DNA from: a virus
Lineage: Duplodnaviria > Heunggongvirae > Uroviricota > Caudoviricetes
Virus record (IMG/VR): IMGVR_UViG_2690316278_000015
DNA length: 21,808 nucleotides
Strand: one strand, 5' to 3'
Both the position numbers and the translations under genes were made by a program. Positions 1-20,542 of this stretch are shown in pieces. A model generated the notes under the pieces. It was given only the letters and a program-made list of their open reading frames with translations. It had not been told where the DNA came from and ran no database searches. Positions within the stretch are counted from its first letter, which is position 1. Every line of letters starts with the position of its first letter.

Positions 1-5303
<5,303 letters not shown>

Positions 5304-5316
5304 TAAGGATTAGATA

Positions 5317-5640
5317 ATGAGAGTATTTAAAGATACGCAGTGTGATGCGTTTCTAAATGCTTTCGGTCAGTCTATCCAAACTTGTACGGGAAGTACTTTT
5401 ACAGGAATAGTAGAAGTACTTCCCGTTTCTATTGAGGCGGCAGGTGGATTTATCGAAAGCGTGGAAACATACCTAACAATCAGAAAGGACGATCTAATAA
5501 CCGCAAACGTGGCAATTGGTACAGTACTAATCATTGATGGTGTAAACCAGACAATCTATAACATTGAAGATGATCTATCAGGTATGGTTAATTGCTATTT
5601 CCGTACTTCTGCTGGTGCTTCATTTGCAGAGGACTACTAA
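5317..5640 (+). CDS. Putative head-tail joining / head completion protein
   Basis: 107-aa ORF directly after the capsid gene with AAGGA SD; position matches HK97 gp6-like connector genes. Assignment is positional. Confidence 0.45.
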   Translation: MRVFKDTQCDAFLNAFGQSIQTCTGSTFTGIVEVLPVSIEAAGGFIESVETYLTIRKDDLITANVAIGTVLIIDGVNQTIYNIEDDLSGMVNCYFRTSAGASFAEDY

Positions 5641-5641
5641 T

Positions 5642-5798
5642 ATGATGTTAGTACAAAAAGTACGGAATACGATGAAGCAGCTTATCAATGCTACTAAGAA
5701 TCTGACAGTATCACGTGATGTTGATGTATTTGAACAAATTGCTTTTGATTACTCATTAACGAGTTTAAGTTTCAGCAATGAACGCCGGGCAGGTAACT
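5642..5798 (+). CDS. Hypothetical protein, 3' end lost in N run (likely head-tail connector module)
   Basis: ATG at 5642 one base after the upstream stop (TAAtATG); open frame MMLVQKVRNTMKQ... runs into the N run at 5799. The ORF-track start at 5564 would overlap the upstream gene and is less likely. Confidence 0.4.
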
Positions 5799-6271
5799 NN
5801 NNNNNNNNNNNNNNNNNNNNNNNNNNNNNNNNNNNNNNNNNNNNNNNNNNNNNNNNNNNNNNNNNNNNNNNNNNNNNNNNNNNNNNNNNNNNNNNNNNNN
5901 NNNNNNNNNNNNNNNNNNNNNNNNNNNNNNNNNNNNNNNNNNNNNNNNNNNNNNNNNNNNNNNNNNNNNNNNNNNNNNNNNNNNNNNNNNNNNNNNNNNN
6001 NNNNNNNNNNNNNNNNNNNNNNNNNNNNNNNNNNNNNNNNNNNNNNNNNNNNNNNNNNNNNNNNNNNNNNNNNNNNNNNNNNNNNNNNNNNNNNNNNNNN
6101 NNNNNNNNNNNNNNNNNNNNNNNNNNNNNNNNNNNNNNNNNNNNNNNNNNNNNNNNNNNNNNNNNNNNNNNNNNNNNNNNNNNNNNNNNNNNNNNNNNNN
6201 NNNNNNNNNNNNNNNNNNNNNNNNNNNNNNNNNNNNNNNNNNNNNNNNNNNNNNNNNNNNNNNNNNNNNNN
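5799..6271. other. Masked/unknown sequence (N run, 473 nt)
   Basis: Continuous n characters; content cannot be assessed. Confidence 0.99.
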
Positions 6272-6329
6272 TTCAGAAGCAAATAATTTTGAAACGTATG
6301 ATAGTGATTACAGGACAGTACTACTATCT

Positions 6330-6849
6330 NNNNNNNNNNNNNNNNNNNNNNNNNNNNNNNNNNNNNNNNNNNNNNNNNNNNNNNNNNNNNNNNNNNNNNN
6401 NNNNNNNNNNNNNNNNNNNNNNNNNNNNNNNNNNNNNNNNNNNNNNNNNNNNNNNNNNNNNNNNNNNNNNNNNNNNNNNNNNNNNNNNNNNNNNNNNNNN
6501 NNNNNNNNNNNNNNNNNNNNNNNNNNNNNNNNNNNNNNNNNNNNNNNNNNNNNNNNNNNNNNNNNNNNNNNNNNNNNNNNNNNNNNNNNNNNNNNNNNNN
6601 NNNTCNNNNNNNNNNNNNNNNNNNNNNNNNNNNNNNNNNNNNNNNNNNNNNNNNNNNNNNNNNNNNNNNNNNNNNNNNNNNNNNNNNNNNNNNNNNNNNN
6701 NNNNNNNNNNNNNNNNNNNNNNNNNNNNNNNNNNNNNNNNNNNNNNNNNNNNNNNNNNNNNNNNNNNNNNNNNNNNNNNNNNNNNNNNNNNNNNNNNNNN
6801 NNNNNNNNNNNNNNNNNNNNNNNNNNNNNNNNNNNNNNNNNNNNNNNNN
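6330..6849. other. Masked/unknown sequence (N run, 520 nt, with two called bases 'tc' at 6604-6605)
   Basis: Continuous n characters. The 58-nt unmasked island 6272-6329 is open in one + frame (SEANNFETYDSDYRTVLLS), so coding likely continues across it. Confidence 0.99.
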
Positions 6850-8859
6850 ATGACAAAGACGGGTACTCTAAGTATCTATGCAAAGAACGCTACAACCGCC
6901 TGGACACGCATATATACCGCTACACAGATGGACGGGCGATACGTACCCCTTACACGTACCATCAACGGCCATGCACTCACGGCCAATTTAGTACTGAACA
7001 GTGAAGATACAGGTTCAGTACCTGATACACGTACTGTGAATGGTAAGCCTCTAAGTGAGGATGTAGTACTTACCAGTACTGATACCGGCTCTGTACCAGA
7101 TACACGGACAGTTAATGGTCATGTACTCAGTGAAGATATAGTACTGAGTAGTGAAGATACAGGTTCAGTACCTGACACGCGTACAGTGAACGGTCATGTA
7201 CTTAGTGAAAATGTAGTACTGAGTAGTGAAGATACAGGTTCAGTACCTGATACACGTATGGTCAACGGTCATGTACTCAGTGAGGATGTAGTACTTACCA
7301 GTACTGATGTTGGCTTAGGGAAGGTTACAGATGATGCCCAGCTTACGATAGCAGGTAATCTAAGTGATCTGGGGGACGTGGAAGAAGCACGTATTAACCT
7401 TGCTGTTTACTCAATGGATGAAGTAGATGCAGAGGTAACGGCTTTAGCTGACAGTATTACTTCCCTTGATTCCGCTTCCATGAAGAAAGCGAGTAACCTT
7501 TCTGATCTATCCAGTCTCTCTACAGCACGTACTAACCTACAGGTGAACCGTTTGACTCAGGGTGCTACGTACACCGATCTGATGAGTAATGACCTGACTA
7601 ACCGTATCCGAATTCAGGATAACGGGGCATGGGGTGCAAGTACTGGTACTGGATGGATTGCTTTAGGTATAGGTCAGGGGGGGACAGGGGCTACAGATGC
7701 TTTGAGTGCTCGCCTAAACTTTCAGGTGGATCGCTTTAATCAAGGTAGTAATTTAACAACTATTAAATCCGCTGATTCTTCCGCTGCATTAGTGGTTTAT
7801 GATGGAGGGCAATGGGGTTCAGCTACATATATTGCGGGTGCTTTCACTGGCTGGAAAGCATTAGCAATTCCGCAGGGCGGTACTGGTGTTAAGACTCAGG
7901 CTGAGTTATGGCCTGCGATTCGTCCTACGGGTGCAACTTCTTTAGCAGGAGATCCTGTCTCTGATTCTGACGCGACTACCAAACGCTGGGTTGAAAACTT
8001 GCTGAGTAGTCGTACTTCAGTTAGTCCTCAATGGGATGTTATTGCTTCTTCCCCTTCCTCTACGGCAATTGGTAGTTATGTAACTGGAGGGCGTATTCGT
8101 TCGATATGCAACATTGGTACATCAACTGAAATATCTGGTGGTTTTCGGGTTGGTAAAACGATGGGACAGACTGGACAGGCTGATCTCACCCTTTTTATTT
8201 CTGAAAATGGTGCAGAGGATAAACTATGGGGGCTAAAAGGGCCGACTGGAACGATCCTAACTGATGTTCAATCAGGATGGATGACTAATACCGCTGTTTC
8301 GGGACCGACAGATGCCAATACCATCACCTTTAACGGTATGTATGCAGGGCCAGGTGACTCAGGTATTAACTATAGTGAAAAATATTCCCCTTTATTGCAC
8401 ATGCAAAGATACCCAGGGGCAAATCGCTCTCAGCTTCAGATAGACGGTGGTGGTACTTTAAGAGTACGAGGCGGGAACGGTACAACATGGTTTGGATGGT
8501 TAGTAATGCAAGCTCAAGGTACATCAGGTCGTGAGTTTAAAAGAGACATAACTCCAGCAAATCCAGTTGAAGCATTAGATCGGATAATGTCACAAGATTT
8601 AGTAACGTTTATCTACAAGGATGATGAACAAGAAAGGGTTAGGTTTGGTGTTATCGCCGAAGATGCTGAGTTGACTGCTCCGCAGTACATTAAGCATGAT
8701 GAAGAAACAGTTGAAATAGAAGGGGAGATTGTCACTCGTGATCATCCACGTGTTGATTTAAATCCAATAGTGATGGACTTGATGGGAGCTATTCAAGCCC
8801 AACAAGAAGAAATTAATCAGCTAAAAGATTTAGTACAACAGCTATTAAATAATAAATAA
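6850..8859 (+). CDS. Tail-fibre-like protein with Stf-type repeats and C-terminal intramolecular chaperone (peptidase S74-like); candidate neck/collar whisker
   Basis: First ATG after the N run is 6850, but the frame is open back into the gap, so the true start may be upstream. Five tandem 25-aa repeats (TRTVNGHVLSEDVVLSSEDTGSVPD). C-terminal ~110 aa matches the endosialidase/T5-pb1 chaperone pattern (S-G-R-E-F-K-R-D-I...ALDRI...RFGVIAED) with terminal coiled coil. Confidence 0.8.
   Translation: MTKTGTLSIYAKNATTAWTRIYTATQMDGRYVPLTRTINGHALTANLVLNSEDTGSVPDTRTVNGKPLSEDVVLTSTDTGSVPDTRTVNGHVLSEDIVLSSEDTGSVPDTRTVNGHVLSENVVLSSEDTGSVPDTRMVNGHVLSEDVVLTSTDVGLGKVTDDAQLTIAGNLSDLGDVEEARINLAVYSMDEVDAEVTALADSITSLDSASMKKASNLSDLSSLSTARTNLQVNRLTQGATYTDLMSNDLTNRIRIQDNGAWGASTGTGWIALGIGQGGTGATDALSARLNFQVDRFNQGSNLTTIKSADSSAALVVYDGGQWGSATYIAGAFTGWKALAIPQGGTGVKTQAELWPAIRPTGATSLAGDPVSDSDATTKRWVENLLSSRTSVSPQWDVIASSPSSTAIGSYVTGGRIRSICNIGTSTEISGGFRVGKTMGQTGQADLTLFISENGAEDKLWGLKGPTGTILTDVQSGWMTNTAVSGPTDANTITFNGMYAGPGDSGINYSEKYSPLLHMQRYPGANRSQLQIDGGGTLRVRGGNGTTWFGWLVMQAQGTSGREFKRDITPANPVEALDRIMSQDLVTFIYKDDEQERVRFGVIAEDAELTAPQYIKHDEETVEIEGEIVTRDHPRVDLNPIVMDLMGAIQAQQEEINQLKDLVQQLLNNK
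6952..7326 (+). repeat. Five tandem in-frame 75-nt coding repeats (phage tail fibre repeat)
   Basis: Units at 6952, 7027, 7102, 7177, 7252; near-identical at nucleotide level, each encoding TRT[VI]NG[HK]xLS[EA][DN]xVL[TS]S[TE]DTGSVPD. Confidence 0.9.
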
Positions 8860-8917
8860 ATATAAACGGGGTGAACGGATTCACTCCAATAAAATTTTCT
8901 TATAAGGATATAAAACT

Positions 8918-9391
8918 ATGGCTATGGATATTTTTTCCGGTGCTAACCTTACTGTAGAAGTAGGTTCAAGTGCTGGTAAAACAGTTGCTACTGACTTTGT
9001 AGAAGTACCAGAGGTAAACACCTTCAGTACTTCAGGCTTTGAAAGTACTGTAATTAGCGTAAAAACATTCAATAATGCTTATGATCGTAAGCTATTGGGT
9101 ACTAAGTCAATCCCGGACATTTCTCTTGCAGTTAACTACTTACCAGATAATGCAGTACATCAGAATTTAGAACAACTTGCAGACGATCAGAAACGTTGTC
9201 AGGTAAAACTAAGCTATTTTACCGATGCAACTAAAAAAGAAGGTTTCTTTGTAATTTATACCTGCTTTGTTTCAAGTACCACTATCGGTGGTGATAAAGA
9301 TGAAGTAGTAACTAAGACTTTCACCCTTGCAGTTGATGGTGAAGCAATTGATTCAGGTCTGATTACTCCAAAACCAGAATCGGGCGAATAA
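8918..9391 (+). CDS. Major tail (tube) protein
   Basis: 157-aa ORF with AAGGA SD; lies immediately upstream of the chaperone pair and tape measure gene, the canonical position; followed by three tandem stop codons and a strong hairpin. Size similar to small siphovirus tube proteins. Positional assignment. Confidence 0.6.
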   Translation: MAMDIFSGANLTVEVGSSAGKTVATDFVEVPEVNTFSTSGFESTVISVKTFNNAYDRKLLGTKSIPDISLAVNYLPDNAVHQNLEQLADDQKRCQVKLSYFTDATKKEGFFVIYTCFVSSTTIGGDKDEVVTKTFTLAVDGEAIDSGLITPKPESGE

Positions 9392-9399
9392 TAATAAAT

Positions 9400-9429
9400 A
9401 AAGGGAAGGTGCTCAACTTTCCCTTTTTT
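9400..9429 (+). terminator. Rho-independent terminator-like hairpin (probable partial terminator/attenuator after the tail tube gene)
   Basis: AAAGGGAAGGT (9400-9410) pairs with ACTTTCCCTTT (9416-9426) around loop GCTCA, followed by TTTATT. Seen directly. Confidence 0.6.
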
Positions 9430-9430
9430 A

Positions 9431-9742
9431 TTGGAGATGAAAATGAATTTAAACGAATTGAAGAAAAAACTACAACCAGAATTAAAACCACATGAAGTAA
9501 TGGGTGAAATCATCTTTATTCATCGTCCAAATGGTCAGGATTTCCAGAAATGCACTGATGTGGCTAAAACTCTAATCCTATGTGTAAAAGATGAAAATGG
9601 TGATCCTATCTTCGCAGAAGAAGATATTGATGGACGAATTAATGTTAACTCTATTGATTTTGTAATCCAGAATGAAATTTACTCAGCAATTATTGCTTTA
9701 ATCAATACTGCGAAACCTGTAGATGAAGTAGAAAAAAAGTAA
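9431..9742 (+). CDS. Tail assembly chaperone (lambda gpG analogue)
   Basis: 103-aa ORF between tail tube gene and tape measure gene; ends ...GAA AAA AAG TAA with a canonical slippery heptamer just before the stop. Confidence 0.65.
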   Translation: MEMKMNLNELKKKLQPELKPHEVMGEIIFIHRPNGQDFQKCTDVAKTLILCVKDENGDPIFAEEDIDGRINVNSIDFVIQNEIYSAIIALINTAKPVDEVEKK

Positions 9743-10137
9743 GAGGTGATATCGAATTAAAGTACTTTTGTAAGATGGTTAACAAAAGAGGCTTATCACC
9801 TGAAGAATACTTTAGTTTAGATCCTGATGTACTCAATATGCTTATGATCTACGATACTTTTATAGAACCATCCGGTACGCAGATTGAAATGATGAAACAT
9901 GCGTACCAGTGTTACTACACCACTATCAGTAATGGCAACCTAACACCAGAAGCAAGGAAAAGTATCAAGGTACAGGATTTTGATTTTCTTGATGTGCTTA
10001 GTGATAGTACTAAGAGTACTTCAGAGAAAGCTGAAGAAAGAAAATTAAAAACTAAAGAGGCTCAATCCAATGATATTAAATCTATAGGGGAGTTAATTAA
10101 ATCTCAGGTATTAGGAAAGAAAAAGAATGGCAAATAA
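9431..10137 (+). CDS. Tail assembly chaperone frameshift product (gpGT analogue), via -1 shift at 9733-9739
   Basis: -1 frame ORF (9727-10137; ORF track shows it from ATG 9775) overlaps the 3' end of the G-like ORF and ends 11 nt into the tape measure gene, matching the conserved G/GT arrangement of long-tailed phages. Confidence 0.55.
9733..9739 (+). promoter_or_regulatory. Programmed -1 ribosomal frameshift slippery site A_AAA_AAG (G to GT-like fusion)
   Basis: Heptamer A AAA AAG in the zero frame of ORF 9431-9742, 1 nt before its stop. The -1 frame is open from 9727 to 10137, so slippage would yield ...EVEKK-VRGDIELKYFCKMVNKRG... Same heptamer as the E. coli dnaX site. Confidence 0.65.
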
Positions 10138-12478
10138 TAATAGAATACGTGTAGATATTACGGGTGATTCTTCCGGTTTACAGCGTGCTTTAAGGTCTGG
10201 TACTGAATCATTAGAGGAATTTGGTAGTACTGCTGGTGGCATTGTTGAAGAGTTCACAGGCCGANNNNNNNNNNNNNNNNNNNNNNNNNNNNNNNNNNNN
10301 NNNNNNNNNNNNNNNNNNNNNNNNNNNNNNNNNNNNNNNNNNNAATCATTAGAGGAATTTGGTAGTACTGCTGGTGGCATTGTTGAAGAGTTCACAGGCC
10401 GAATAACTGGTATGGCTGGCGGGTTCGGTACTGCTATGACCGGGATCGCGGGTGCTGCGGCTATTGGTATTGGTGGCCTGGCAGCATTAGTAGAATCATC
10501 ACGTGAATATGTGCGTGAAATGAACCAGATCAGTAAGAGTACCGGATTGTCCGTGGTTCAGTTACAACAGCTATCAGCGGCGTTTAGTGGCCTCGGTCTT
10601 GAGATTGATAAGTTTGGTGATTTCAACAAGGATACCTTGGATAAGCTCGGTGATGCTTTTCGTGCTGGCGGTGGTGTATCCGATGATCTTAAAGAATATG
10701 GACTCAACCTACAGGACTATAACAAGTACTTAAAACAGGCTGATGGTGGTATGCAGGCTGTGATCCACACCTTTTACGCCATGCGTGATGCAGGTAAATC
10801 ACAGAGTGAAATAGTTAACGTAATGGAAACGTTAGCCAGTGACTCAAGCCACATGATTAGTACTCTTCAGCAGTTCAATAATGAGGCTCAAGCTACAGCC
10901 TATATCCAGTCACAAAATGCTGAAGTAACTAATGATGCTGCTGAAAAATATGCTGAATTCGATAAAAACCTTGGGAAACTTACTACCAGCATTAAAGGTA
11001 CTATTGCTGATGGCCTATCACCTTTAGTTAATGCCATGAACAGTGTCTATGATGCTGCAAATCAAAAACCTCACGAGGCAGGTTTGTTTGAAGATCTGAA
11101 TGAACGTATTAAAACTTCCAAGGGTTCTCTACAGGATATGTTGGATATCTGGGAAAAATTACGTACAGCAGGGGCATTAAACTACCAGGGTGCAGCACTC
11201 AATACTGGCATCATGGATGATAAGGGCAACAAGGGTAATGAGTTCGCTCAGGCTAAGGCACGTTTAGAAGAACTGGCAAACAACCTAAAGTCCGATGTTG
11301 CGGTTGCTACCGCTCCTACTGGCGGATGGGTTGATCAGGCAAAAGAAGCTGAAGATGCAGCGAAGAAGTTAGAACAACAACGTAAACAGGCAGAAGCGGC
11401 ACAAAAGGCGGCAGATGCAAAACGCCTACAGGCTCAACGTAATCTGGAAGCTGCTCTTGCTCAAGTTGGGGAAGATGGTTTTCAGGTACGTCTACAGCAG
11501 TTCGACAGACAACAAAAGGCACTTCTTAAAACCATCACCGATAGTGCTCAAGTACTCGGTATCAATCCTGATGAAATGCTAAAGAACGCTACTGCATATG
11601 GTGCTAAACAACGTACTGATTTACTGAATTCAATGGTTGGTTATCAAGATCCTAATCAGGGTCTGAAAGATACCAATGCTCTTATTGGTTCCGGTCTACT
11701 CAATGACAATCAGAAGGGGTATCTGGCACAGCAACAGAATCAGCGTATCAATGGTGGTAATCCATTAGCCTATAACGATACCGATCAGAAGTTGAAAGAT
11801 AACGCTGATGCTATGAATGCTGAACTTCAGCAGAATGAGTTGTTGCTGAAAGGCCATGAGGACTATGAGAAACGTAAAGCTGAGATCACGGCAAAGTACA
11901 ATGCACAGGCCATCCAAATCAGTAACCAGAATGCACAGGATCAGTTAAGTATCTTCTCAAGTACTGCACAGTCACTATCACAGGGCATGGTTGATGCGTT
12001 TGGGGAAAGTAGTGGGGCTGCACAAGCTGCATTTACCCTAAGTAAGAGCATAAGCATTGCACAGACAGTACTTTCAATTCAGTCAGCATTGGCCCAAGCA
12101 CTCGCTACCCCTTGGCCAGCTTCATTGGCAAACTATGCACAAGTACTTTCACTTGGTATGTCGATTATTAGTACTGCAAAGGGTGCTGCTGCTGGTCAGT
12201 TCCATGGCGGGGTAGATGAACTACCAGCAAGTTATGACAACAAATCATTTGTACTTAAGCAGGGCGAGAGAGTGGTGCAGCCTGAAGCGAATAAGAAATT
12301 AACAGCATTCTTGGATAAACAAGAAGGTGGAAGTACTTCAGGTGATATTACCGTTAACGCACCATTGATCATCCAGGGTGATGTAGCTGATGATGACAAG
12401 AAATTTAATGAGATGCTTAAGAAACACGCCAATAGTGTTTCTCAAGCTGTGAGAAGTAGTCAAAAACGTAATACATAA
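10127..12478 (+). CDS. Tail tape measure protein
   Basis: 783-aa ORF (as assembled) following the chaperone pair; Gly/Ala-rich hydrophobic segment (ITGMAGGFGTAMTGIAGAAAIGIGGLAAL), extended Gln/Ala/Lys-rich helical regions, hydrophobic C-terminal segment. Contains N run 10265-10343 flanked by identical 59-nt copies, so true length may be about 46 aa shorter. Confidence 0.9.
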   Translation: MANNNRIRVDITGDSSGLQRALRSGTESLEEFGSTAGGIVEEFTGRXXXXXXXXXXXXXXXXXXXXXXXXXXXSLEEFGSTAGGIVEEFTGRITGMAGGFGTAMTGIAGAAAIGIGGLAALVESSREYVREMNQISKSTGLSVVQLQQLSAAFSGLGLEIDKFGDFNKDTLDKLGDAFRAGGGVSDDLKEYGLNLQDYNKYLKQADGGMQAVIHTFYAMRDAGKSQSEIVNVMETLASDSSHMISTLQQFNNEAQATAYIQSQNAEVTNDAAEKYAEFDKNLGKLTTSIKGTIADGLSPLVNAMNSVYDAANQKPHEAGLFEDLNERIKTSKGSLQDMLDIWEKLRTAGALNYQGAALNTGIMDDKGNKGNEFAQAKARLEELANNLKSDVAVATAPTGGWVDQAKEAEDAAKKLEQQRKQAEAAQKAADAKRLQAQRNLEAALAQVGEDGFQVRLQQFDRQQKALLKTITDSAQVLGINPDEMLKNATAYGAKQRTDLLNSMVGYQDPNQGLKDTNALIGSGLLNDNQKGYLAQQQNQRINGGNPLAYNDTDQKLKDNADAMNAELQQNELLLKGHEDYEKRKAEITAKYNAQAIQISNQNAQDQLSIFSSTAQSLSQGMVDAFGESSGAAQAAFTLSKSISIAQTVLSIQSALAQALATPWPASLANYAQVLSLGMSIISTAKGAAAGQFHGGVDELPASYDNKSFVLKQGERVVQPEANKKLTAFLDKQEGGSTSGDITVNAPLIIQGDVADDDKKFNEMLKKHANSVSQAVRSSQKRNT
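10265..10343. other. N run (79 nt) inside the tape measure gene, flanked by identical 59-nt direct copies (10206-10264 and 10344-10402)
   Basis: Sequence AATCATTAGAGGAATTTGGTAGTACTGCTGGTGGCATTGTTGAAGAGTTCACAGGCCGA occurs on both sides; copy spacing 138 nt (in frame). Confidence 0.95.
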
Positions 12479-12488
12479 GAAAGCCCAG

Positions 12489-13061
12489 TTAGGGATTTTC
12501 CGTGTGATAAGACAAATATTGTGAAAGAGAAGATGAAAGGGTATAGAGATTGTAATACTCTTCCCGCAATAATTTAACTTTAGGTGGTGAGTATTTAATA
12601 TTGTATGCAAGCTGTGTTGAAAGAGTACGTAATCTCGATAATGAATAATAACTCTTTACGATGGCATCTACTTCTTTTTTTGGGAGTGATGCTAATTTTT
12701 CTAATTGGGAATAATATACATCATCATGCAAATAAGAAACGGCAGTTGCTACTCTTTTAATAGCTTCTGTATCTTCAGTTGGAAGAGGAATACATATTTC
12801 ATATGTGCCTAACACCTGAGACTCATCGCCACCAGTAGCAAGAGCTAAAAGGTTATTGTTGATTTCGCTCAATAAGATTACACGCATCTTAAAAACATCA
12901 TCTGAACTTTCTTTCCATTTATCATATGCGTTATAGCCTATTTGGCCTGCAAATAACAACATAGCAACGATGACGGATGCAGCCTGCCAATCAAGCCTGT
13001 TAAAAAAAATACGAATCGAGGTTTTTAAATAAATAAAGAAAGAAGATATTCGAGGTAACAA
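12489..13061 (-). CDS. Opposite-strand moron: membrane-anchored protein of unknown function (candidate superinfection-exclusion / injection-blocking protein)
   Basis: 190-aa minus-strand ORF filling the whole 584-nt space between the tape measure stop (12478) and the gpM-like start (13063). Start is TTG at 13059-13061 with AAGGA 7 nt upstream; alternative ATG starts would truncate the predicted N-terminal TM helix (WQAASVIVAMLLFAGQIGY). About 33% GC in two 100-nt samples, lower than flanking tail genes. No plus-strand ORF covers the interval. Confidence 0.55.
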   Translation of the reverse strand: MLPRISSFFIYLKTSIRIFFNRLDWQAASVIVAMLLFAGQIGYNAYDKWKESSDDVFKMRVILLSEINNNLLALATGGDESQVLGTYEICIPLPTEDTEAIKRVATAVSYLHDDVYYSQLEKLASLPKKEVDAIVKSYYSLSRLRTLSTQLAYNIKYSPPKVKLLREEYYNLYTLSSSLSQYLSYHTENP

Positions 13062-13062
13062 A

Positions 13063-13620
13063 ATGGCATCCTTTTCAAATCAAATAAAAGTAACGAACTT
13101 TCAAATTAAAAGTACTGAACCGATCTATTCTAATCAAACATGGACAGGTCAACGTATCATGAGAAGTACTGGAATTCAATACTATCAAATTCAGTTCACC
13201 CTTAATTTTAATCCTGCATCACTAAATGAAGTGAATAGCTTTTTAGCTCAATATGCACAGGGCAAACCTTTCACTATGTCATTGGGGCTTGCAGGTACAT
13301 ATTACGGTAAACAGACTGGTGCAGTAACCGCTACTGCTCTCACTAAACCGGGTAATATGGTTGTACCTATCAGTACTAACACATTAGCTGTGGGTGAGTG
13401 GGTACAGTTTTCCAATCACAATAAGCTATATCGAATCGTAGAACGTACCAGTACTTCAATTACTATTTTCCCTGCTCTACAAAATACAGTACAGGCAAGT
13501 GAAGCACTCAAATATAACAATCTCATGATCGAGGCTGTATTAGATCCAGACAATGATTATTCATTGCCTATTGGGAACATCATGAATATTACATTGAAAG
13601 CAACGGAGAATATCATCTAA
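13063..13620 (+). CDS. Minor tail protein, lambda gpM-like (distal tail)
   Basis: 185-aa ORF first after the tape measure gene on +. Segment YQIQFTLNFNPASLNEVNSFLAQYAQGKPFTMSL resembles the gpM core (Y.V.L.....E.....FL.....G...F.W). Stop overlaps next start (TAATG at 13618-13622). Confidence 0.5.
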   Translation: MASFSNQIKVTNFQIKSTEPIYSNQTWTGQRIMRSTGIQYYQIQFTLNFNPASLNEVNSFLAQYAQGKPFTMSLGLAGTYYGKQTGAVTATALTKPGNMVVPISTNTLAVGEWVQFSNHNKLYRIVERTSTSITIFPALQNTVQASEALKYNNLMIEAVLDPDNDYSLPIGNIMNITLKATENII

Positions 13621-14684: not shown

Positions 14685-18142
<3,458 letters not shown>

Positions 18143-18299: not shown

Positions 18300-18596
18300 A
18301 TGGCACAGGGATTACAATGTTGGAATGCAGCGGGTGTATTAGTAGTAGATCTGACTGATTATAACATACGTTTTATGGGTACTTATACTGTCAAGGCTAC
18401 TTCTGCACAGACCTATACTGTATCAGTACCAAATATGAAAACTACAGGCTGGTTTGTACACTATGCCCCCGCCAGTGATACCTTTAATGAGTGGTCAGCC
18501 TTTTGTAATAATGGGTCATTTACTGCGGTTTATTTGCCAACATATGCACCGTTAGCTGGTAACTACACTTTTAACGTATATAAGTGGACGGCGTAA
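18300..18596 (+). CDS. Hypothetical protein, paralogue 1 (single copy of a ~100-aa domain shared with the next gene)
   Basis: 98-aa ORF with AGGAG SD. N-terminus MAQGLQCWNAAGVLVVDLTDYN matches the N-termini of both halves of the downstream protein. Aromatic/Cys-rich. Confidence 0.6.
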   Translation: MAQGLQCWNAAGVLVVDLTDYNIRFMGTYTVKATSAQTYTVSVPNMKTTGWFVHYAPASDTFNEWSAFCNNGSFTAVYLPTYAPLAGNYTFNVYKWTA

Positions 18597-18597
18597 G

Positions 18598-19254
18598 ATG
18601 GCAGGTTTCGAGGTATATAATTCAGCGGGTGCACTGACTATAGATAGTACTAACAAGTCGATAATGACGGGTGCAGTAAAGGCCATGGGAAATCTAACTG
18701 ATACGGGATACTACACAGGCTTTACCTGTGCCTTCGGTAATGGTGGATCGCTCGGTTTCGTTATGCCATCAGTAGTAGCTAACAGGAACACAACACAGTA
18801 CTGGTTCCAGATACAGAAAGACGGGGCATGGTGTTTCCCTGGTGCCTATATGTTCCAGCCTGGCATGGGCAGGTTCATGACAAGTAGTCACACGGCTACC
18901 CCCACATCTGGTTTTCTTGATGTGTTCAGTGAAGAAGGTACTTTAATCTGGTCTGCTGCATCAGCGGCAACAATGCCACGTATCAGGGGATTTTTGACAG
19001 CACCTGCGGCTACCGATCTCAGTACTGCCATTACGGTAACGTCTCCAGTAGCTGATCCCTGGTTCTGCTGGTCACAATGTCCGGGGAACATATCAGATGA
19101 TGGTACAGTAATTGGGTACTCTGGTCTGGTTATCAGGCGTAATTCCAGTACTTCATTCAGTCTACAGTACGTTTCAAAGAACCAGAAAACCTACCGCCAG
19201 GCAATGGGGAATAATGGTATCCAGATAGCATTGGCGACATTTACAGGGTATTAA
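18598..19254 (+). CDS. Hypothetical protein, paralogue 2 (internal tandem duplication of the same domain)
   Basis: 218-aa ORF starting 2 nt after the upstream stop. Residues 1-20 (MAGFEVYNSAGALTIDSTNK) and about 106-125 (SGFLDVFSEEGTLIWSAASA) both match G[FL]xV[YFW]xxxGxLxxDxT. Confidence 0.6.
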   Translation: MAGFEVYNSAGALTIDSTNKSIMTGAVKAMGNLTDTGYYTGFTCAFGNGGSLGFVMPSVVANRNTTQYWFQIQKDGAWCFPGAYMFQPGMGRFMTSSHTATPTSGFLDVFSEEGTLIWSAASAATMPRIRGFLTAPAATDLSTAITVTSPVADPWFCWSQCPGNISDDGTVIGYSGLVIRRNSSTSFSLQYVSKNQKTYRQAMGNNGIQIALATFTGY

Positions 19255-19583: not shown

Positions 19584-19633
19584 AAAAAGGCATAGTATGT
19601 CATTCGTACTATGCCTTTTCTTTATTTGTTTTT
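19582..19633. terminator. Bidirectional rho-independent terminator between convergent genes
   Basis: A7 tract (19582-19588), stem GGCATAGTA (19589-19597) / TACTATGCC (19607-19615) with 9-nt loop, then T-rich tract TTTTCTTTATTTGTTTTT. Reads as hairpin plus U-tract on either strand. Confidence 0.7.
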
Positions 19634-20071
19634 AAGTACTGCAATCATGGAATTCACACGGTTTGGTGTCTGCCTGTACCATAGAGAACACTTAGCCTGT
19701 TTAATTGCTTCAAGGTAATCATGTGCTTTCAGGGCTGCTAACATCTTACGGAATTTCTTCACCCCGCCAATACCTAACTGGAAGGTCATGATAATAATAA
19801 AATCATTCCAGTCATCGGGAAGATTTAACCCTAATGTCTGTACCTGCATAATTGTTTTGGCTAAATCGCGAGATAGTAACTTGTCTGCTTCGCTTTCAGT
19901 AATGCCAGTACTAAAATCTTCTCCCGCCTGAATTAAGTGACCATATCCAATAGTACTACATCCTAAACTATCAGCATATGGATAGAATTTCCCATTTCTG
20001 AAGTACTTCAAATTTGCCTGATACTCTTTAGTACCTTCATATTCTTTTAATCGTGTTTTTAAATCGCTCAT
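19622..20071 (-). CDS. Endolysin, T4-lysozyme-like (glycoside hydrolase family 24), no signal/SAR segment
   Basis: 149-aa minus-strand ORF. Motifs align with T4 lysozyme: catalytic Glu in LKEYEG, Asp in YADSLG, STIGYGH (T4: YTIGIGH), C-terminal SLWYRQTPNRV (T4: SRWYNQTPNRA). N-terminus is hydrophilic. Confidence 0.9.
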   Translation of the reverse strand: MSDLKTRLKEYEGTKEYQANLKYFRNGKFYPYADSLGCSTIGYGHLIQAGEDFSTGITESEADKLLSRDLAKTIMQVQTLGLNLPDDWNDFIIIMTFQLGIGGVKKFRKMLAALKAHDYLEAIKQAKCSLWYRQTPNRVNSMIAVLKNK

Positions 20072-20107: not shown

Positions 20108-20542
20108 ATGATGAGTGAATGGAAATACTCGGATGATTGGAGCGAGGAGGAAATGTTATCCGGTGAATATGCTGGTTTCGTTTATATCTTTCAGTTTGAG
20201 GATGGTTCTAATTATGTCGGTGCTAAGCAAATCTATCAGCGGGTTAAGGATGCGAGAAAGCTAAAGCCCACTTCAAAGGAAAATGGCTGGCGTGAGTACC
20301 TCAGTAGTTCCAATGTCGTTAAAAACAAAATTGAAAATGGTGAACAGTACTCAAAAACGATTCTATGGTGCTTCGCAACTATGCGAGAGGTAATGATTGT
20401 AGAGGCAATACTGATCCTTCATCAGATGCTTAAACCGGAATGTTTGAATCTGGCAATGATGAGTAAGATTAGATCACCAAATGCAAAGGATAAAAAAAGA
20501 CTACTCGGAATAGTACAGGAACTATTGGAGTACTTGAATTGA
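20108..20542 (+). CDS. Small GIY-YIG-like nuclease domain protein (putative; possible homing-endonuclease relative lacking a DNA-binding extension)
   Basis: 144-aa ORF. GFVYIFQFEDGSNYVGAK fits G-I-Y-x(9-11)-Y-I-G spacing (cf. I-TevI GIYQIKNTLNNKVYVGSAK); Arg 7 residues after YVG; later Glu (MREVMIVEAIL) and Asn (ECLNLA) in positions expected for the catalytic Glu/Asn. The usual His after the Arg is not evident. Confidence 0.45.
   Translation: MMSEWKYSDDWSEEEMLSGEYAGFVYIFQFEDGSNYVGAKQIYQRVKDARKLKPTSKENGWREYLSSSNVVKNKIENGEQYSKTILWCFATMREVMIVEAILILHQMLKPECLNLAMMSKIRSPNAKDKKRLLGIVQELLEYLN

Follow-up and report, generated by a model that had tools for sequence, protein, structure and literature searches.

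A tail fibre with an N-terminal tail-tube-like domain encoded by a siphovirus-type prophage of Shigella sonnei

Known anchors of siphovirus fibres

The attachment of side fibres has reportedly been solved for few siphoviruses, the cases being the T5/DT57C collar, the Ur-lambda Stf collar and the baseplates of phages of Gram-positive bacteria. To our knowledge, the domain that holds the fibre in all solved cases is a separate collar or adaptor located outside the tube. The protein described here combines a tube-protein domain, a fibre and a Peptidase_S74 chaperone in one chain, and this architecture is conserved while the fibre ends are variable. It is reasonably likely that the receptor-binding fibre is covalently anchored by the tube-protein domain, which would form its own ring or rings in the tail tube.

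In T5 and DT57C, the anchor is composed of separate proteins: a ring of the tube paralogue p140, the p132/LtfC collar, and the pb1 or LtfA-LtfB fibres. p140 is not extended. It is a distal tube-like ring of T5, and its genomic position, according to its authors, marks it as a baseplate component. In the prophage protein, the ring domain and the fibre are instead parts of one chain, no collar gene is evident, and the gene lies between the terminator and tube genes.

In the 936-group lactococcal phages, the tube gene mtp is directly preceded by nps, whose product was found at the neck by immunogold electron microscopy (PMC4759559). The neck passage structure (NPS) of the 936 group and TP901-1 resembles our case in this gene position and in the combination of a ring with trimeric fibres and variable binding ends (PMC4759559, PMC6669499). 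The anchors differ. The NPS has a BppU-like beta-sandwich collar, for which an 18-mer encircling the connector has been modelled, and has no S74 domain, whereas the anchor here has the tube-protein fold. A BppU-like collar domain, by which an NPS is recognized, was sought at the N-terminus of the fusion and was not found.

A tube domain with a projecting C-terminal host-binding extension is likewise observed in SPP1 gp17.1*, 936 TpeX and, as an Ig-like domain, lambda gpV (PMC8718954, PMC6669499). These extensions are small Ig/FN3 or carbohydrate-binding modules on the tube protein itself, often made via translational frameshift. Here, by contrast, a separate paralogue of ~30% identity would carry a trimeric fibre of >700 residues with its own S74 chaperone.

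The Stf of Ur-lambda is a trimeric side fibre of a lambda-like siphovirus. It speeds adsorption, and it presents the same mismatch between a three-fold fibre and a six-fold tube (PMC12617516). The Stf collar is a 12-mer of N-terminal domains and lies outside the gpV/gpM junction. The Stf gene follows J, and a separate Tfa chaperone is needed. The fusion does not belong with lambda Stf/Tfa, as its gene is upstream of the tube gene, its N-terminus is a tube domain and its chaperone is intramolecular. It also has no Phage_fiber_2 match, and its anchor would lie inside the tube wall. No description of a tube-domain::fibre fusion was found in the literature of the searchable library, and surveys of fibres and receptor-binding proteins do not mention a tube anchor.

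Locus and full-length gene

The window, that is, the whole stretch of 21,808 nt that was analysed, corresponds to NCBI CXCB01000019.1 (assembly GCA_001255415.1) from position 73 of that record. Database proteins identical to those of the window are assigned to Shigella sonnei. The window contains the late region of a siphovirus-type prophage. Its genes are, in order, those for the large terminase (1-1461), a head-tail joining protein (1473-2003), the portal (2003-3511), a protease-capsid fusion (3459-5303), a stopper-like 107-aa protein, FII/Hc1-like by weak matches (5317-5640), the tail terminator (130 aa), the tube::fibre fusion, the tube protein, two tail assembly chaperones (9431-10137), the tape measure protein (10127-12478), the distal tail protein (13063-13620) and a J-like tail tip protein (14723-18142). 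Of the terminator gene, the 5' part of 53 codons is present (5642-5798, plus strand), and the remainder is lost in an assembly gap. An ORF on the minus strand (19622-20071) was judged by eye alone to encode a lysozyme-type endolysin. PADLOC, applied to neighbouring small ORFs, yielded nothing beyond a weak homing-endonuclease match at 20108-20542. Cultured phages are distant from this element, with a capsid identity of 30% at best, and megablast with 6850-9400 returned zero matches against phages and against complete Escherichia coli genomes.

Three N runs are present in the window (5799-6271, 6330-6603 and 6606-6849). They are also found in the public record CXCB01000019.1, and the IMG/VR contig L012, which has no gaps, is 100% identical to the window across all sequenced segments. 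On this basis, the N runs are assembly gaps. The region 5799-6849 occupies 1051 nt in the window and 895 nt in L012, so the true distance is overstated by 156 nt. In the terminator gene the gaps conceal the 3' part, and in the fusion gene they conceal codons 1-43 and 63-214. An island within them (6272-6329, plus strand) encodes fusion residues 44-62 (SEANNFETYDSDYRTVLLS) of the tube-protein domain, matching the same residues of the S. sonnei protein P0001, and its DNA is 100% identical to L002, L004 and L012. The island and the ORF that starts at 6850 are in different frames only because the lengths of the N runs are inexact. Counted in the register of the island, the true start codon of the fusion gene is at ~6144. 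Another N run, at 10265-10343, lies between contig ends that are duplicated in comparison with L012, and it is a scaffolding artefact.

The ORF at 6850-8859 on the plus strand represents fusion residues 215-883 and the stop codon, as determined with P0001, L012 and L013. P0001, a partial protein of 872 aa obtained by database search, is 100% identical to the ORF and has 214 additional residues upstream, and both L012 and L013 carry an intact ORF of 883 aa. With its 669 residues, the ORF makes up the C-terminal part of a tail protein of 883 residues in the S. sonnei siphovirus-type prophage. It covers the end of a linker domain, the repeats, a shaft with NLSDL...AR.NL motifs, the distal binding domain and the S74 chaperone, and it matches PHROG tail fibre families (E 1e-37).

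A sequence-only reading of the window had placed the gene at 6850-8859 and had regarded its product as a neck-attached whisker. The ATG at 6850 is residue 215 of the 883-aa protein, and the gene start at 6850 is an artefact of the assembly gaps. With the upstream sequence resolved, the ORF becomes the C-terminal part of a larger structural protein, of which the N-terminal 150 aa are a paralogue of the tail tube protein; the reading itself had named such an outcome as one that would overturn it. An internal start at Met215, which would give tube-less fibre chains, was considered and rejected: no Shine-Dalgarno sequence precedes it, and relatives have Leu or Val at this position.

The gene position given by the same reading is correct. 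The fibre gene lies 3' of the connector/terminator genes and 5' of the tube gene, and not 3' of the tail-tip gene. The fusion gene stops at 8859. [quoted passage not shown] Its product matches Pfam Phage_tail_3 (34 bits) and PHROG 158 "major tail protein" (E 5.8e-19). Immediately 3' of the tube gene there is a strong terminator-like hairpin with a T run (9400-9426, plus strand; 11 pairs, then TTTTATT). The hairpin scan of the region detected 2 sites versus 0.5 expected. The fusion and tube genes are both upstream of this hairpin. Their ribosome-binding sites are near-identical, and no low-copy control of the fusion is obvious, which counts against the anchor by a dedicated ring.

Domains of the fusion and its relatives

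The N-terminus of the fusion is MSDIFSGRELSV...VNYLPDDPTHQFLD...GDKGSVVTKAYSF. In BLASTP, it is 31% identical to the tube protein of the same locus over 137 aa (E 7e-21), and residues 2-152 match PHROG 158 "major tail protein" (E 4.5e-10). The tube protein can be aligned with the fusion from end to end and almost without gaps; the fusion continues where the tube protein stops. The AlphaFold2 (AF2) model for residues 10-150 has block-mean pLDDT values of mostly 70-94, and the beta-sandwich, flanking helix and long hairpin of the tube fold are all found in the domain. Judged from these alignments, the product of the gene immediately downstream, the tube protein, has a diverged paralogue in residues 1-150 of the fusion. 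These residues are followed by a conserved linker domain (residues 150-245).

Two observations count against the anchoring function. The AF2 monomer model of the linker domain is poor, with low confidence, and the Pfam tube models (PF08813) give no match to the fusion at E <= 0.1.

Mean pairwise distances within the family are 0.47 for the fusion tube domain, 0.32 for the linker domain and 0.28 for the tube protein. As the fusion tube domain is ~30% identical to the tube protein and evolves faster, a dedicated ring or rings would be expected rather than free mixing. The comparison points to low-copy, dedicated homo-hexameric ring(s) in preference to free mixing into every tube ring.

The fibre shaft includes five tandem repeats of 25 aa (75 nt) at 6952-7326 on the plus strand. 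Their number, already proposed from the sequence, agrees with the translation, in which the unit TRT(V/I)NGxxLxxxxVLxSxDxGxxxx extends over ORF residues 35-159, and with Tandem Repeats Finder, which reported a period of 75 nt, 4.2 copies and 79% matches at 6989-7303 (score 371). Their designation as Stf-type was not retained. The Pfam search for Phage_fiber_2 (PF03406) gave no match to the ORF at E <= 1, and none to the full-length relatives at E <= 0.1. In PHROG, the repeats match families annotated as tail fibre, tail protein and head fibre. A Pfam match to GldM_2nd over repeats 1 and 2 (25.5 bits; cut-off 24.4) was rejected as repeat-driven, since it is missing from the scan of the full-length protein and falls to 14 bits, far under the cut-off, in P0004.

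The distal fibre part, which is probably receptor-binding, was delimited by tblastn at 7900-8523 on the plus strand, the start being approximate. ORF residues 362-669 are 47% identical to a sequence of Escherichia phage SDYTW1-F1-2-2_3, and tblastn also matches the distal domain with LtfB of DT57C and with lateral tail fibres from the phages GeorgBuechner and bob. These matches relate the distal domain to coliphage lateral tail fibres.

The Peptidase_S74 intramolecular chaperone domain, from the putative cleavage Ser to the C-terminal helix, is located at 8524-8856 on the plus strand, as defined by Pfam and alignments. The S74 module recognized in the sequence-only reading was recovered by the HMM search: PF13884 matches ORF residues 560-608 with 34.4 bits (cut-off 22). 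Matches to Peptidase_S74 are also found in P0001, P0004 and P0011. The codon at 8524-8526, which had been singled out as that of the cleavage Ser, encodes Ser559 of the ORF (Ser773 of the full protein), and Lys564 (8539-8541; Lys778 of the full protein) follows five residues on. Both are in register with SSDRRIKKDI of phage S16 gp37 (6f45) and TSGIEYKKDV of DT57C LtfB (8hqz), aligning with the Ser and the Lys of these two structures. The domain is 60-70% identical to that of LtfB (8hqz; E 5.9e-34), and the protein ends with the helical tail QAQQEEINQLKDLVQQLLNNK. The likeness to the chaperones of the K1F endosialidase and T5 pb1 type consists of the Pfam match, the Ser-x4-Lys in register, the C-terminal position and the terminal helix. 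The motif differs, being SGREFK instead of the usual SDxRxK, and this variant is shared with DT57C LtfB. From the alignments, the Ser-Lys pair is in place in a C-terminal S74 chaperone, and the cleavage is putative.

The family recurs in Enterobacterales prophages. Pattern searches with the N-terminal module detected 5 loci in species-representative genomes (Scandinavium, Buttiauxella, two in Phytobacter, and Enterobacter) and 41 in IMG/VR. In ~45 related loci, the order is capsid, stopper-like gene, tail terminator, tube::fibre, tube protein, chaperones and tape measure, and the fusion gene with the tube gene next to it was counted in ~40. Nearly all complete loci have an ORF of 740-1240 aa with the tube domain first, and the short tube gene follows 40-430 nt on. 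The S74 end is found in 29 loci. The remaining loci have a different end followed by a gap big enough for a small gene, which possibly encodes a separate chaperone. Receptor-binding proteins typically swap their C-terminal ends in this way.

When 1.84 billion representatives were searched exhaustively with a profile, 183 clusters were obtained at E <= 1e-3. About 100 of these clusters, made at 50% identity, are long proteins with the full 1-253 module and varied fibre ends. PGAP, on an annotated E. coli chromosome with the same order, uses the names "tail fiber domain-containing protein" for the fusion and "phage tail tube protein" for the product of the adjacent gene. Intact relatives are, for example, the prophage of E. 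coli 02B21CPO003B (NZ_CM151386, 1.82-1.84 Mb) and those of Scandinavium lactucae V105_6 and Phytobacter diazotrophicus DSM 17806. Of 50,697 phage records, a single one, that of Escherichia phage DCP80, contains a relative (25% identity). Its genes are in the same order; the fibre end differs, and an additional fibre-like gene is present. Protein P0031, with a fibre and DUF8377, was considered as a second architecture and was rejected as a deletion chimera.

Many S. sonnei strains have the gene in two pieces of 622 and 286 aa, owing to a tandem duplication of 165 nt and an indel, and the S. sonnei prophage is interrupted by IS elements. The element is decaying in S. sonnei although the copy in the window appears intact. 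With the gene split and the IS elements in many strains, the fusion protein may no longer be used there. The fusion could, on this ground, be a non-working part, either a decaying remnant or a chimera of assembly or deletion, in which the tube-like N-terminus has no structural role. The artefactual gaps of the window assembly and the chimeric P0031 are in line with such an origin. Against this, intact long ORFs with the same N-terminal module are present in ~40 independent loci of several genera, and the linker domain is well conserved (the mean pairwise distance of 0.32 given above), so this explanation is very improbable.

Proposed assembly and possible positions of a fibre ring

The oligomeric state, the cleavage, the tube incorporation and the virion position that we infer for the fusion would be as follows. 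The chaperone would drive three chains into a single trimeric fibre and then cleave itself at Ser773. The three tethered tube domains would enter the growing tail as half of a hexameric ring, so that each ring would bear two fibres. The fibre would then be held covalently in the tube wall, with no clamping by a separate collar or adaptor. Its tip would bind a host surface glycan or protein and would set or widen the host range. A six-fold ring bearing two three-fold fibres is an unusual geometry, and this counts against such an assembly.

One conceivable arrangement is that the fusion co-polymerises with the tube protein over the whole tail, giving a fibre-studded tube comparable to SPP1 gp17.1* and lactococcal TpeX. 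The near-identical ribosome-binding sites and the co-transcription of both genes upstream of one hairpin agree with this, and extended tube proteins at a sub-stoichiometric ratio are known. Column conservation in both paralogues shows that the N-terminal arm, the long hairpin, VNYLPD and GDKDxVVTK are shared; the arm and the hairpin make inter-ring contacts. The known cases, however, use the same tube domain, extended by a frameshift, while the paralogues here are ~30% identical and the fusion tube domain evolves much faster than the tube protein. Such fast evolution is unexpected for a subunit that has to fit the tube protein on all sides. A dispersed distribution is thus unlikely.

For the dedicated ring, two positions are rated about equally likely. 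The ring could be placed at the neck, since the fusion gene is directly 3' of the tail terminator gene. The fusion would then be the last tube ring directly beneath the terminator, and the fibres would be collar whiskers for early, reversible binding, functioning like the lactococcal neck passage structure or the T4 whiskers. The identity of the upstream 130-aa gene as a tail terminator is in favour of this, as the order of the stopper-like, terminator, fusion and tube genes is the head-to-tip order of the virion parts. The reasoning from gene position used in the sequence-only reading has a real precedent in the 936 phages, where nps is directly upstream of mtp and the NPS is at the neck (PMC4759559). 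The distal ring p140 of T5 is encoded at a position that marks the baseplate, so co-linearity would place the fusion proximally. A tandem duplication, on the other hand, would also leave the gene next to the tube gene, irrespective of where the protein sits in the virion. The anchor differs from the BppU-like collar domain of the NPS, and the distal domain is related to fibres that act at the tail tip. From general dimensions of fibres and tape measures, the fibre (~560 aa) is estimated to be shorter than the tail (tape measure of ~740 aa), so fibres at the neck and the tip would be unable to contact the surface at the same time. At loci where the terminator allele was swapped, no special co-divergence with the terminator is seen. 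A neck position is possible, at a low level of confidence.

The other position is at the tip, where the fusion would be the first ring of the tube, set on the distal tail protein, and would bear the side tail fibres of the phage. One chain would replace T5 p140, the p132 collar and pb1, or the collar of lambda Stf. This is the sole long fibre gene: a search 3' of the J-like tip gene in the window revealed no other long fibre gene and no stf-like gene. The distal domain and the chaperone closely resemble those of lateral tail fibres in coliphages, T5-like ones included, and the C-terminal modules are swapped as in primary receptor-binding proteins. T5 provides an example of a tube-paralogue ring at the junction of tube and tip that anchors side fibres. 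It can also be reasoned that the three tube domains of a trimer should bind the initiator complex with high avidity. The gene, however, is located outside the baseplate genes. The mirror-tree correlation of the fusion tube domain with the distal tail protein (Spearman 0.75; partial 0.55) is not clearly higher than that with the terminator (0.67; partial 0.44). Recombinants that separate the neck from the tail modules were looked for, and no clean breakpoints were found. The tip position is possible, at the same low level of confidence as the neck.

The neck whisker proposed from the sequence alone is consequently retained in part. The fibre with its S74 chaperone and the location of the gene are as described, and the exclusion of a distal tail fibre is withdrawn, as a ring at the tip, or several rings along the tube, would fit equally.

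The anchor by a tube-protein domain would need no separate collar or adaptor, and we see the case for and against such an anchor as evenly balanced. If the ring lies under the terminator, this would be the first Gram-negative siphovirus whose neck whiskers have their anchor inside the tube wall. If true, a fibre in the tube wall would resolve the mismatch between six-fold and three-fold symmetry in a way distinct from the anchors solved so far. It would also provide a simple annotation rule for ~100 protein clusters of Enterobacterales prophages that are now only named "tail fiber domain-containing protein". A tube-domain anchor with freely swapped fibre ends would be a natural scaffold for retargeting phages or tailocin-like particles.

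Assembly artefacts at N runs

Within the tape measure gene (10127-12478), a sequence of ~59 nt occurs twice, once on each side of the Ns at 10265-10343. SLEEFGSTAGGIVEEFTGR is present twice in the tape measure protein, around this N run. Only one copy of the ~59-nt sequence is found in L012, an IMG/VR contig without gaps that is identical to the window over the sequenced segments. Because of this single copy, the N run represents overlapping contig ends that were joined with Ns. At the N run 17832-17916, a 15-residue segment of the J-like tail tip protein is repeated on either side. The comparison with L012 reaches 10265-10343, and L012 ends before 17832-17916; the second N run is probably the same artefact. 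The lengths of ORFs spanning such N runs are inflated.

Gene organization of the late region

A single ORF (3459-5303) encodes a 614-aa fusion of the prohead protease (Peptidase_S78) with the HK97-type major capsid protein; the closest phage match of this fusion is just 30% identical. A strong terminator-like hairpin (9400-9426), with 11 pairs followed by a T run, lies directly 3' of the tube gene (8918-9391). A weaker hairpin of 8 bp (8868-8887; -10.5 kcal/mol, z -2.6) is located between the fibre gene and the tube gene. The two hairpins may determine how strongly the tube genes are transcribed in comparison with the downstream tail genes.

Between the genes for the tape measure and the distal tail protein (13063-13620), a 190-aa ORF is encoded on the opposite, minus strand (12489-13061). 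Its N-terminus is apparently hydrophobic. Its sole match was PHROG 3829, a family of unknown function, and PADLOC returned no match for it. The related locus L005 has a reverse gene of 157 aa at the same spot. This position looks like a variable moron slot within the tail module.

Two conserved genes (18300-19254) come after the J-like tip gene (14723-18142). They encode ORFs of 98 aa (PHROG 7961) and 218 aa (DUF8377, PHROG 4524), and occupy the position where lambda-like phages have side-fibre genes. A 144-aa ORF (20108-20542), which adjoins the putative lysis region, shows a weak homing-endonuclease match (PADLOC PDLC03702, E 4.4e-5).

Related module in DCP80 and decay in S. sonnei

The 141-kb record of Escherichia phage DCP80 (PQ671644.1) is classified as Straboviridae, yet its first 25 kb (positions 1-25000) contain a siphovirus-type module related to the window prophage; the record may be chimeric or misclassified. 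In this module, the tube gene is preceded by a further fibre-like gene in addition to a tube::fibre gene. Almost all CDS in these 25 kb are annotated as hypothetical.

In other S. sonnei genomes (L002, L003 and L004), an in-frame tandem duplication of 165 nt together with an indel breaks the fibre gene into parts of 622 and 286 aa. IS elements are present in these sister strains after the 107-aa gene (5317-5640) and within the tape measure gene. The sister-strain differences correspond to window positions 5611 and 7480-7644. The prophage is decaying in S. sonnei.
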